Below, in pieces: positions 4,855 to 7,997 of a DNA stretch of 64,000 nt; the first letter of the stretch is position 1; each line of letters begins with the position of its first letter. A model generated the notes under the pieces. It was not told where the DNA came from. It made no database searches and worked only from the letters and a program-made list of their open reading frames with translations. The translations under genes were made by a program, and so were the position numbers. The DNA is from Escherichia coli (GTDB lineage: Bacteria; Pseudomonadota; Gammaproteobacteria; Enterobacterales; Enterobacteriaceae), in assembly GCF_029227855.1 (NCBI RefSeq), contig NZ_CP074356.1; one strand, given 5' to 3'.

Positions 4855-6270
4855 TTATTTCGAGTTGCTATTTGAGATGTCGAACTGCTGTGTCAGATAG
4901 CTACTGGTGGAGTTAAGCGAGTTCATTAACACATCTAATTGGGTGAACTGGGCTTTATAGCGCGTCATTAAGGTATCGATACGCTCACTGGCTGCGTTGT
5001 ACTGGTCGGTCAAATTATTAAGCGTTTTGCTGACGCCATCTTTTGCGGCCTGGATTATCCCGGTGGAAGAGAGCCAACTGGTTAGGTTACTACTAATGCC
5101 GGTGGTTACCCCTGTACTTTTACCGTCACCTATAAACATTTCACTGATGCCAGCGGCATCTTTTTTTAGCGCCGTTTGCAGTTTGTCGGTCGCGATTTCC
5201 AGCTTGCCGGTACTGGCATCGCTGGTAATGCCAATCTGTGCCAGCGTTTTATAGTTTGAACTGCTGTGAGTATTGGCGAGCAAGGTTTTAAGCTGAGTCT
5301 GGATGGTACGCAGTGTGGAGTCACCGAGTAATGCGCCATTGCTGGAGTCCTGACTCTCTGCACCGGCATCGACAGCGGTGTATTTGGTTAAGCTGCTGAA
5401 CGTATCCTGCAATGAGTTATAGGCATCCGCCCACGCTTTAACCGCATTTTCAGCTTTGGATGTGTCTTTACTGATGGTCAGTGTCTGATTACCGGTGGTG
5501 ACGTCATTCAGGTTGAGGGTGATATCTTCCAGCGCGTCGCTGATAGTGTTACTGCTGTTTTCAATCTCAACGTTATTGACGGTCAGTTTGGCGTTTTGCG
5601 CAGTGACGCTTTCAATCATGCCATTGCTGCTATCACCCGACGTTCCGTTGTAACCCATAAAACTTTCCAGGGCGCTGTCGCCGCTGACGCTAAGTTTCAT
5701 AGCGTTATCGCTGCCCGTATCGTTAGCAGTGATGGACAGACGATACTCGCCGTTACCCACATGGATGATACTGGCGCTGACACCAGCTTTGGCGTTGTTA
5801 ATGGCATCGCGAATGCCGGAAAGTGACGAGTTAGCCGCGCTGATATCAATCGTGACCGGATCTTTACCGCCGCCTTGCTGGATGGTTAGTACGCTATCGC
5901 TGGTGGCGATGGCAGCTTTACTGTCTTTTTGACTATTTTGGGTGGTCAGCGTCTGTGCCTGCGCCAGTTGGCTAACGCTAATGGTGTATTTCCCGGCAAT
6001 CGCGCTGCCCGTGGTGGTGGCGCTGAAAGCCGATGAACTGCTGGTAGTTGAGGTGGCGGTAAATAAATCGGCTTTGTTCAGTGCTGTGTTGGCTGTCTGG
6101 AAGCTCTCTAGTGCGCTTTTCAGCGTCCCGTAGGCGCTCAGTTTCGCGGTATAAGAGCTTTGCTGTTTTGATATCGGCGTCAGGGTAGATTTTTCTGCCG
6201 CCTCCAGACTGTCAAGGATGCTGCTTAAGTCCAGCCCCGACCCAACCCCAAGCGTTGAAATACTAGCCAT
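4855..6270 (-). CDS. fliD: Flagellar filament capping protein FliD (HAP2), non-K-12 allele
   Basis: 471-aa ORF with conserved FliD N/C termini and divergent Ser/Thr-rich centre. Confidence 0.9.
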   Translation of the reverse strand: MASISTLGVGSGLDLSSILDSLEAAEKSTLTPISKQQSSYTAKLSAYGTLKSALESFQTANTALNKADLFTATSTTSSSSAFSATTTGSAIAGKYTISVSQLAQAQTLTTQNSQKDSKAAIATSDSVLTIQQGGGKDPVTIDISAANSSLSGIRDAINNAKAGVSASIIHVGNGEYRLSITANDTGSDNAMKLSVSGDSALESFMGYNGTSGDSSNGMIESVTAQNAKLTVNNVEIENSSNTISDALEDITLNLNDVTTGNQTLTISKDTSKAENAVKAWADAYNSLQDTFSSLTKYTAVDAGAESQDSSNGALLGDSTLRTIQTQLKTLLANTHSSSNYKTLAQIGITSDASTGKLEIATDKLQTALKKDAAGISEMFIGDGKSTGVTTGISSNLTSWLSSTGIIQAAKDGVSKTLNNLTDQYNAASERIDTLMTRYKAQFTQLDVLMNSLNSTSSYLTQQFDISNSNSK

Positions 6271-6312
6271 ATAGATTCCTTAATCATGCGACGTATAGAA
6301 CGAATATCGAGG

Positions 6313-6339
6313 TTATCGGCGTAAGCGGGGCAAAGTTTA
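6313..6339 (-). promoter_or_regulatory. fliD: sigma28 (FliA) class 3 promoter of fliDST
   Basis: Minus strand reads TAAACTTT-N11-GCCGATAA, 7/8 and 8/8 to consensus TAAAGTTT-N11-GCCGATAA, about 45 nt upstream of fliD start. Confidence 0.6.
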
Positions 6340-6412
6340 CGATTTATTTTTTGGTTTAATGACACGAACAGCAACGAGGAAGGGGAGTATTTCGACCGCT
6401 AGAAAAAAATTC

Positions 6413-6439
6413 TAAAGGTTGTGAGTGACCAGACGATAA
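6413..6439 (+). promoter_or_regulatory. fliC: sigma28 (FliA) class 3 promoter of fliC
   Basis: TAAAGGTT-N11-GACGATAA about 75 nt upstream of fliC ATG. Confidence 0.65.
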
Positions 6440-6515
6440 CAGGGTTGACGGCGACGAAGCCGAAGGGTGGAAGCCCAATACTTAAACCGTAGACTTGAAA
6501 ACAGGAAAAGAAATC

Positions 6516-7997
6516 ATGGCACAAGTCATTAATACCAACAGCCTCTCGCTGATCACTCAGAACAACATCAACAAAAACCAGTCTGCGCTGTCGACTTCTA
6601 TCGAGCGCCTTTCTTCTGGTCTGCGTATTAACAGCGCTAAAGATGACGCTGCGGGCCAGGCGATTGCTAACCGCTTCACTTCTAACATCAAAGGTCTGAC
6701 TCAGGCCGCACGTAACGCCAACGACGGTATTTCTCTGGCGCAGACCACTGAAGGCGCGCTGTCTGAGATTAACAACAACTTGCAGCGTGTGCGTGAGTTG
6801 ACTGTACAGGCGACGACCGGGACTAACTCTGATTCTGACCTGTCTTCTATCCAGGATGAAATCAAATCCCGTTTAAGCGAAATTGACCGTGTATCTGGTC
6901 AGACTCAGTTTAACGGCGTGAACGTACTGGCTAAGAATGACACCCTGTCTATTCAGGTAGGTGCAAATGACGGTCAGACTATCAATATTGACCTGCAGCA
7001 AATCGATTCTCATACACTGGGTCTGGATGGTTTCAGCGTTAAAAATAATGATGCAGTGAAAACCAGTGCTGCCGTGAATACTCTTGGGGGGGGGGCAGGT
7101 TCTGTTGCTGTCGACTTCGCAACAACCAGTTTGACTGCTATCACTGGTCTCGGTAGCGGTGCTATCAGCGAAATTGCTAAAGACGATAATGGTGATTACT
7201 ACGCGCATGTCACAGGGACTACGGGTAATACTGCTGATGGTTACTATGCTGTCGATATCGACAAGGCTAACGGTGAGGTCGCTCTGAAAGATGGTAACGT
7301 AGATACACCGACAGGTACGCCAACGACGACAAGCACATATGACTTCACAGACGCTGGTCAAACCGTTTCCTTTGGCACTGATGCTGCAACAGCCGGTATC
7401 AGCACTGGTGCTTCTCTCGTTAAACTTCAGGATGAGAAAGGCAATGATACTGCTACTTATGCAATCAAAGCACAAGATGGCAGCCTGTATGCCGCCAACG
7501 TTGATGAGGCTACCGGTAAAGTCACTGTCAAAACCGCCAGCTATACTGATGCTGACGGCAAAGCAGTGACCGATGCCGCTGTAAAACTGGGTGGTGACAA
7601 TGGCACAACCGAAATTGTTGTCGATGCTGCGTCAGGTAAAACTTACGATGCTGGTGCACTGCAAAACGTTGATCTCTCCAGTGCAACCAACACGGTAACC
7701 GCAATCCCGAACGGTAAAACCACGTCTCCGCTGGCTGCCCTTGACGACGCAATCAGCCAGATCGACAAATTCCGCTCCTCCCTCGGTGCGGTGCAGAACC
7801 GTCTGGATTCCGCGGTCACCAACCTGAACAACACCACTACCAACCTGTCTGAAGCGCAGTCCCGTATTCAGGACGCTGACTATGCGACCGAAGTATCCAA
7901 CATGTCGAAAGCGCAGATCATCCAGCAGGCAGGTAACTCCGTGCTGTCCAAAGCTAACCAGGTACCGCAGCAGGTTCTGTCTCTGCTGCAGGGTTAA
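6516..7997 (+). CDS. fliC: Flagellin FliC (H antigen), non-K-12 allele
   Basis: True start MAQVINTNSLSL inside the 500-aa track ORF; conserved D0/D1 termini, divergent central domain. Confidence 0.9.
   Translation: MAQVINTNSLSLITQNNINKNQSALSTSIERLSSGLRINSAKDDAAGQAIANRFTSNIKGLTQAARNANDGISLAQTTEGALSEINNNLQRVRELTVQATTGTNSDSDLSSIQDEIKSRLSEIDRVSGQTQFNGVNVLAKNDTLSIQVGANDGQTINIDLQQIDSHTLGLDGFSVKNNDAVKTSAAVNTLGGGAGSVAVDFATTSLTAITGLGSGAISEIAKDDNGDYYAHVTGTTGNTADGYYAVDIDKANGEVALKDGNVDTPTGTPTTTSTYDFTDAGQTVSFGTDAATAGISTGASLVKLQDEKGNDTATYAIKAQDGSLYAANVDEATGKVTVKTASYTDADGKAVTDAAVKLGGDNGTTEIVVDAASGKTYDAGALQNVDLSSATNTVTAIPNGKTTSPLAALDDAISQIDKFRSSLGAVQNRLDSAVTNLNNTTTNLSEAQSRIQDADYATEVSNMSKAQIIQQAGNSVLSKANQVPQQVLSLLQG

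Follow-up and report, generated by a model that had tools for sequence, protein, structure and literature searches.

An ordinary Escherichia coli fliDST-fliC filament locus with the H24 flagellin and a very probable history of recombination in two layers

In an E. coli chromosome that otherwise resembles K-12, the divergent genes for the flagellar filament cap (FliD) and flagellin (FliC) are markedly unlike their K-12 counterparts, raising the question of which H antigen they specify and how the locus came to differ. An earlier note had read the pair as a recombination-replaced island of non-K-12 alleles, assignable to a known H type by comparison with references. The window analyzed here (the whole stretch of DNA, 64 kb) matches at 100% the chromosome of E. 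coli JNEC-KY178 (NZ_AP045174.1), a clinical isolate from Japan whose serotype is O23:H24 according to Table S1 of bioRxiv 10.64898/2025.12.25.695649. No relative of this strain above ~98% over 16 kb was found among complete genomes. The ORF list and the RefSeq annotation give the gene order amyA-fliT-fliS-fliD / fliC-fliA-fliZ, with the pair fliD(-)/fliC(+) spanning positions 4855-7997 between fliS/fliT/amyA and fliA/fliZ (Table 1). We are highly confident that this is the ordinary fliDST-fliC filament locus of the strain, a textbook site of antigen switching, and that it has undergone recombination in two layers.

Table 1. Features of the fliDST-fliC locus (positions in the window)
Feature	Position	Strand	Basis and remarks
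fliS and fliT, chaperones, fliD operon	4064..4839	-	ORFs and annotation; K-12-like, outside the replaced block
fliD, filament cap, 471 aa	4855..6270	-	ORF; common "class 2" E. coli allele
Predicted sigma-28 (FliA) class 3 promoter of the fliDST operon	6313..6339	-	Exact TAAA-N15-GCCGATAA (TAAACTTTGCCCCGCTTACGCCGATAA)
Predicted sigma-28-type fliC promoter	6413..6439	+	TAAAGGTT-N11-GACGATAA, 77 nt upstream of the ATG; putative function
fliC, H24 flagellin	6516..7997	+	493 aa plus stop; RefSeq CDS coordinates agree
H24-specific recombination block, ~codons 81-430	6756..7800	+	Boundaries approximate, within ~50 nt
D3 (outermost) and adjoining D2 edges, codons 176-295	7041..7400	+	Part unique to H24
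Part of D2, codons 296-380	7401..7655	+	Common to Pseudocitrobacter faecalis flagellin
Terminator-like hairpin (intrinsic), end of the fliC transcript	8172..8198	+	CCCCGCCACCGGCGGGG then TTTTTT; putative function

FliD forms a pentameric cap that inserts flagellin subunits at the filament tip. The FliD of the window contains the FliD_N and FliD_C domains (PF02465 and PF07195), scores 684.3 bits against the equivalog model NF005955 of NCBIfam (cutoff, 387), and has E. coli FliD (5h5v) as its best solved structure; domains and equivalog score alike identify it as a filament cap (HAP2) protein. FliC matches Flagellin_N (PF00669; residues 5-142), Flagellin_C (PF00700; residues 407-491), Flagellin_D3 (residues 204-274), and FLIC_barrel of Pfam and scores 650.8 bits against NF005953 (cutoff, 619), placing it by domains and family score among the FliC/FljB flagellins. 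Its genomic setting is that of this family, since fliC is divergent from fliDST, upstream of fliA, and behind a predicted sigma-28 promoter. The 245-bp spacer shared by fliD and fliC holds both predicted sigma-28 (FliA) class 3 promoters. The pattern TAAA-N15-GCCGATAA occurs twice in the window, where chance alone would give 0.04 matches, and the occurrence upstream of fliD, on the strength of its consensus and position, probably drives fliDST; the putative fliC promoter departs at two positions from the consensus TAAAGTTT-N11-GCCGATAA. The terminator-like hairpin falls between fliC and fliA, in a spacer with 96-100% identity to that of K-12.

The earlier note had given FliC 500 aa, which proved wrong. 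The ORF of that length opens at an in-frame TTG (6495) lacking a Shine-Dalgarno sequence, and the true start codon is an ATG at 6516 that follows an AGGA Shine-Dalgarno sequence at 6503-6506. The product begins MAQVINTNSL, and the solved flagellins that are its best structure matches (e.g., K-12 FliC, 8cxm) align with it from residue 1. With 493 aa, it is therefore five residues shorter than H48 flagellin rather than two residues longer. The upstream TTG has likewise led at least one automatic annotation astray.

In flagellins, the conserved helices at the two termini (D0/D1) form the filament core, and the outward-facing D2/D3 domains constitute the H antigen. We took the domain assignment of FliC from the Salmonella FliC structures 1ucu and 1io1, with which the alignment is nearly 1:1. 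Over residues 19-479, which cover the entire variable region, FliC agrees with gi 30059884, the reference flagellin for H24, in 460 of 461 residues, the only difference being N253, where the reference has T. That reference is a 461-aa partial sequence lacking residues 1-18 and 480-493, and we take it to belong to the series of Wang et al. 2003. It is listed under the strain label HW25 in the curated database of flagellins from PMC3578835, where it was the top mass spectrometry match for the H24 reference strain E192. On this variable-region identity, fliC is assigned to the H24 antigen type, in line with the expectation that a reference comparison would settle the matter; the allele is already known, H24 being a long-established though rare type and the serotype of the strain having been published. 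No observation speaks against this type or against the identities of the two genes. Nothing usable emerged from the literature on primers for H24, gene lengths, or new H genotypes.

Comparison with K-12 delimits the unusual stretch sharply. The window is collinear with MG1655 at ~97-98% identity, and the sole diverged stretch is ~4840-7800, so that the flanks are indeed K-12-like, as the earlier note had it (98.1-98.3% nucleotide identity for fliS/fliT). On the left, the fliS/fliD junction (~4840-4855) marks a fall in identity from 97-100% to 65-80%, and on the right, identity returns to 95-98% at ~7800, within the 3' end of fliC; both steps occur within ~50 nt. Between them, nucleotide identity is 73% in fliD, 70% in the intergenic region, and 75% in fliC, and synonymous divergence is saturated (dS of 2.3 in fliD) versus a dS of 0.04-0.11 in the flanks. 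Sharp boundaries and saturated dS support the view that non-K-12 alleles were placed by recombination in a K-12-like backbone. We looked for insertion sequences or long repeats at the block borders and found none. Along FliC, amino acid identity to K-12 runs from 98% (residues 1-80) through 88% (81-175), 30% (176-295), and 60% (296-380) to 94% (406-493), bearing out the description of conserved termini around a diverged center. A blastn search with the center of fliC (7030-7730) returned no match in any K-12 genome, and with an amino acid identity of 30-60% there, the variable region does not match that of H48.

The island reading is thus supported but needs refining, as the replaced DNA is not one unit. 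The outer layer comprises fliD, the intergenic region, and fliC codons 1-80; this haplotype is common in E. coli, occurring in 1,322 of 5,426 complete genomes (~24%, counted as fliD DNA at least 95% identical), and the inner layer, fliC codons ~81-430, is H24 specific and present in 2 of the 5,426, as is the full-length gene. Against strains with the same fliD class, CLSC36 (O1:H42) and MS20657, the window is ~100% identical up to ~6750-6850, then 40-85%, and again 94-100% from ~7800. RMDEC465, the other H24 genome, has codons 81-405 in common with the window (dS of 0.03-0.07) and differs more at the ends (dS of 0.33 in codons 1-80 and 0.17 in codons 406-493). In no other complete E. coli genome among the 5,426 did the blastn search with 7030-7730 find a match, and the 90% protein cluster of FliC has 11 members on ~40 contigs. 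Only ~1 kb inside fliC, excluding fliD, is thus type specific, which, like the corrected flagellin length, is of practical value. "Replaced" is itself a relative term because the two E. coli FliD classes, at 80% mutual identity, are each closer to Pseudocitrobacter FliD (88% and 83%) than to each other.

Several other accounts of these alleles deserve weighing. Given that flagellin centers are established targets of diversifying selection, accelerated point mutation in place under immune pressure, without recombination, might be invoked. Such a process is exceedingly improbable here: the drop in identity from 97-100% to 65-80% is completed within ~50 nt at both ends, dS is saturated inside and low outside, one fliD haplotype is joined to different fliC centers in other strains, and the H24 center is joined to different ends in RMDEC465. 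Equally remote is the idea that the odd alleles are assembly or annotation artefacts or pseudogenes. A related NCTC assembly (locus L003) does have fliC split and fliD lengthened by single-base indels, but both ORFs of the window are intact and full length, FliC aligns completely with the solved K-12 flagellin, and the identical protein occurs on at least eight independent contigs, with its cluster on ~40. A new H type outside the 53 recognized ones might be suspected from the rarity of the allele (2 of 5,426 complete genomes), its center unmatched in other E. coli genomes, its merely generic RefSeq product name, and the absence of any old reference accession from the 11-member cluster. It is nonetheless very improbable, being refuted by the 460/461 identity to the H24 reference and at odds with the published serotype of the source strain; the name is uninformative, as most E. 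coli fliC genes are called "FliC/FljB family flagellin," and the partial length of the reference (461 aa) may account for its absence from the cluster. An untyped allele, suggested by the generic name and the missing old accessions, was accordingly dropped, generic names being near universal and the partial H24 reference having been matched.

On the basis of these observations, we propose that the difference from K-12 arose by homologous recombination at a locus that is probably under diversifying selection. A deep, common E. coli haplotype extends over fliD, the spacer, and the first ~80 fliC codons, and a rare ~1-kb block (codons ~81-430) defines H24. Structurally, this block falls in one family with H48 (closest among the named E. 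coli types in protein searches, at 69%), and its nearest kin are in P. faecalis and other non-Escherichia Enterobacteriaceae. Its most likely route into E. coli would be an intergeneric exchange that crossed over in the conserved ends, the D3 domain having been swapped separately.

The kinship with Pseudocitrobacter runs domain by domain. Outside its own cluster, H24 FliC best matches P. faecalis flagellin (84-85%), followed by proteins of Buttiauxella, Kluyvera, Enterobacter, and Pluralibacter. The P. faecalis flagellin (P0028, 508 aa; loci L008 and L010) is 100% identical to H24 over residues 1-175 and 406-493, and over residues 296-380 it retains 95% amino acid and 93-96% nucleotide identity (dS of 0.22 and dN of 0.02). 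Its D3 (residues 176-295), by contrast, is 50% identical and 15 residues longer, and for these codons no more than 62% identity was seen outside the H24 cluster among 154 retrieved proteins, mostly best matches. The P. faecalis locus has the layout of the window, with a fliC promoter region 97-99% identical; positions 6421-6570 are 97-99% identical to Pseudocitrobacter and to other class 2 E. coli and 72-87% identical to K-12. Comparison of fliC of RMDEC465 with Pseudocitrobacter locus L011 over 6421-7020 gave 96-99% identity in six of eight 75-nt windows and 92-96% in the last two. The flanking genes of the Pseudocitrobacter loci, in the same order as in the window, show the nucleotide identity of about 80% (range, 65-83%) expected between genera (dS of 0.9-2.4). 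The conserved ends of fliC have low dS in every comparison, with 0.2-0.3 at the C terminus even between genera; because this is weak evidence of recent transfer, the case for transfer rests on the D1 and D2 segments.

We lean, with some reserve, toward reading H24 as an H antigen whose donor and crossovers are still visible: the fliC block would have come from a Pseudocitrobacter-like enterobacterium, with D3 exchanged independently. If true, this would contradict a 2020 survey (PMC7018530), according to which none of the E. coli variable-region forms resembles flagellin from any other species and neither a source nor a crossover boundary was known. It is also possible, if somewhat doubtful, that the likeness reflects transfer from E. 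coli to Pseudocitrobacter, or descent of both from a third enterobacterial lineage, with no import into E. coli. The DNA-level comparison covers three Pseudocitrobacter-context alleles, and nucleotide differences of 2-7% in the shared segments imply that the exchange was not very recent; related variable regions are likewise present in Kluyvera, Buttiauxella, Enterobacter, and Pluralibacter, and the best match to the unique H24 D3 among the retrieved proteins is 62%. Against these alternatives, few E. coli genomes carry the allele family (2 of 5,426), whereas Pseudocitrobacter-context loci have several diverged alleles (P0027 to P0029 and, probably, P0030) with 95-99% identity across their 5' parts, and the Pseudocitrobacter-like 5' part of RMDEC465 (6571-6720) is 89% identical to every other E. 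coli class compared. The mosaic, domain-by-domain kinship of H24 with Pseudocitrobacter offers a lead on the origins of E. coli H-antigen diversity.

Among the known systems close to the two proteins, the K-12 H48 flagellin (PDB 8cxm) has the same domain architecture as H24 FliC and aligns with it from end to end (498 versus 493 aa); their D0/D1 cores are 88-98% identical, and residues 296-380, at 60%, are recognizably homologous, whereas D3 is reduced to 30% and the whole protein to about 70%, the two being different antigen types. The FliD cap (PDB 5h5v; K-12 FliD) belongs to the same family as the FliD of the window, with common FliD_N/FliD_C fold regions and a full-length alignment; the latter is three residues longer, its length of 471 aa versus 468 having been correctly noted before, and it differs from K-12 FliD to the extent of 80% amino acid and 73% nucleotide identity.

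The flagellin gene of the window is an allele of H24, an already known type. Residues 19-479 of its product match the 461-aa partial sequence '>gi|30059884| H24' of the curated flagellin database of PMC3578835 at 460 of 461 positions, the exception being N253, which is T in the reference; that entry is the top mass-spectrometry hit for the H24 reference strain E192 (PMC3578835 supplement). This comparison settles the H type, which the earlier note had left open. The window is a 100% match to the chromosome of Escherichia coli JNEC-KY178 (NZ_AP045174.1), a clinical isolate from Japan that is independently given as O23:H24 in Table S1 of bioRxiv 10.64898/2025.12.25.695649. 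Of 5,426 complete genomes, 2 carry the full-length gene; blastn matched its center (7030-7730) to none of the other complete E. coli genomes of that set, and the 90% protein cluster of its product has 11 members.

The start codon of fliC is an ATG at 6516, nine bases 3' of an AGGA, and the resulting 493-aa FliC begins MAQVINTNSL. The RefSeq coding sequence agrees, and the top solved flagellins, such as K-12 FliC (8cxm), align from residue 1 of this product. The length of 500 aa in the earlier note was an ORF-calling artifact, the listed ORF starting at a TTG at 6495; the automatic gene call of a JGI/IMG member of the H24 cluster (P0009) is also 500 aa long via the same upstream TTG. The length claimed there for FliD, the filament cap protein, is correct (471 aa versus 468 aa in K-12, with 80% amino acid identity). 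FliD scores above the cutoff of its equivalog model, and among solved structures it matches the E. coli cap (5h5v). FliC scores above the FliC/FljB family cutoff; its alignment to K-12 FliC runs from end to end, and that to Salmonella FliC (1ucu) is almost 1:1. In flagellins, D0 and D1 form the filament core and the surface recognized by TLR5, and the exposed D2 and D3 domains bear the H epitopes.

The genes run amyA(-), fliT(-), fliS(-), fliD(-), fliC(+), fliA(+), fliZ(+), and tcyJ(+), the same neighborhood order as in K-12 viewed from the opposite strand. Local blastn of the window against 73 kb of MG1655 revealed that it is collinear throughout at ~97 to 98% identity, with the fliD-fliC region and two short indels as exceptions, in keeping with the K-12-like flanks described earlier. 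At ~46758-46798, yecT and yecV, which in K-12 lie between flhE and argS (~730 nt), are absent, and argS directly follows flhE; at ~54044-54048, the window is without ~134 nt that K-12 has between torZ and cmoB, a stretch that may represent an intergenic element of the REP type.

Gene by gene, the window is 97 to 99% identical to K-12 at the nucleotide level from yedF to fliS and from fliA to sdiA, versus 73.4% in fliD, 70.2% in the spacer between fliD and fliC, and 74.8% in fliC. In 50- to 60-nt windows, identity falls at the fliS/fliD junction (~4840-4855) and recovers at ~7800, within the 3' conserved part of fliC. Synonymous divergence is 0.04 to 0.11 in the flanks versus 2.3 in fliD and is saturated in the fliC center. 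No insertion sequence or long repeat was found at the borders of the diverged block. The sharp borders, the contrast in dS, and the lack of such border elements bear out the view of a recombination-replaced locus in a K-12-like backbone, and no mechanism other than homologous recombination reasonably accounts for this divergence.

Features of the fliD-fliC region and of FliC, with a second sigma-28 site elsewhere in the window (residue numbers where so marked)
Feature	Position	Strand	Details
fliD	4855-6270	minus	
Putative sigma-28 promoter upstream of fliD	6339-6313	minus	perfect consensus
Putative promoter upstream of fliC	6413-6439		TAAAGGTT-N11-GACGATAA
fliC	6516-7997	plus	H24
REP-like palindrome, fliC-fliA spacer	8056-8119		arms CTTATCAGGCCTACAA and TTGTAGGCCGGATAAG
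Rfam ES036 (CssrF) sRNA match	8062-8103	minus	42.1 bits versus gathering score of 37.6
Putative terminator after fliC	8172-8198		hairpin plus T-run
Second perfect sigma-28 consensus	36579-36605	plus	TAAAGTTT-N11-GCCGATAA
Flagellin_N	residues 5-142		
Flagellin_D3	residues 204-274		
FLIC_barrel	residues 340-382		
Flagellin_C	residues 407-491		
D0/D1	residues 1-175		100% amino acid identity to P. faecalis
D3 and adjoining D2 edges	residues 176-295		50% amino acid identity to P. faecalis
D2	residues 296-380		95% amino acid identity to P. faecalis; dS 0.22, dN 0.02
C terminus	residues 406-493		100% amino acid identity to P. faecalis

We infer promoter and terminator function at the fliD and fliC sites from their sequences. 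The second sigma-28 consensus lies ~60 nt upstream of tar, as placed by collinearity with K-12, and the ES036 match overlaps the REP-like palindrome.

The diverged block has two layers. Its fliD allele is common, with DNA at least 95% identical in 1,322 of 5,426 complete E. coli genomes (about 24%). Relative to two strains with the same fliD, CLSC36 (O1:H42) and MS20657, the window is ~100% identical over fliD, the spacer, and the first 230 to 330 nt of fliC (dS of 0.03 to 0.05), diverged from ~6750-6850 to ~7800, and 94 to 100% identical beyond; the type-specific DNA is thus ~1 kb, roughly codons 81 to 430. The H24 fliC of this strain thus sits next to a fliD of a common class. The only other complete genome with an H24 fliC, RMDEC465 from Thailand (96.6% nucleotide identity), shares codons 81 to 405 (dS of 0.03 to 0.07) but differs at the ends (dS of 0.33 for codons 1 to 80 and 0.17 for codons 406 to 493), indicating that the H-specific block moved between E. 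coli backgrounds through crossing over within the conserved ends, as has been described for serotype switching (PMC7018530).

The fliD dimorphism itself is deep: the window and K-12 classes differ at a dS of 2.3, and their 80% protein identity, set against the 88% and 83%, respectively, that they share with FliD of Pseudocitrobacter faecalis, means that they differ more from each other than from another genus. A third strain (NCTC assembly GCA_900448615.1, UGAW01000002, 653-5378) has a 99.9% identical H24 fliC that one extra base breaks into two ORFs, a fliD called as 495 aa, and, between fliC and fliA, an IS3-family element (HTH_21/rve and a transposase ORF); these anomalies could reflect sequencing error or a truly non-motile strain.

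Outside the H24 cluster, the best matches among 5.8 billion proteins are P. faecalis flagellins (84 to 85%), followed by those of Buttiauxella, Kluyvera, Enterobacter hormaechei, Dryocola, and Pluralibacter (73 to 79%); of the named E. coli types, H48 comes closest (69%). Genes are arranged in the Pseudocitrobacter loci as in the window, and the flanking genes are 65 to 83% identical (dS of 0.9 to 2.4). The FliC similarity to P. faecalis is a mosaic, and no relative of the D3 segment exceeds 62% identity among the retrieved proteins. Between RMDEC465 and a Pseudocitrobacter-context allele (L011), six of the eight 75-nt windows over 6421-7020 are 96 to 99% identical and the last two 92 to 96%; in JNEC-KY178, sequence resembling that of other E. 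coli strains of its fliD class has replaced 6571-6720. Over 6421-6570 (the fliC promoter, 5' UTR, and first codons), strains of this class are 97 to 99% identical to Pseudocitrobacter, versus only 72 to 87% to K-12; over the preceding 6271-6420, the match to Pseudocitrobacter drops to 77 to 79%. On the whole, different genera probably exchanged fliC segments, with E. coli the likely recipient and D3 swapped separately, a reading tempered by the low dS of the conserved fliC ends in every comparison (0.2 to 0.3); we infer the direction only from how rare the allele is in E. coli and how diverse the Pseudocitrobacter alleles are. According to a survey of 2020, none of the variable regions in E. 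coli resembled the flagellins of other species, and no source was known (PMC7018530); the link between H24 and Pseudocitrobacter is thus a modest addition and no surprise in kind.
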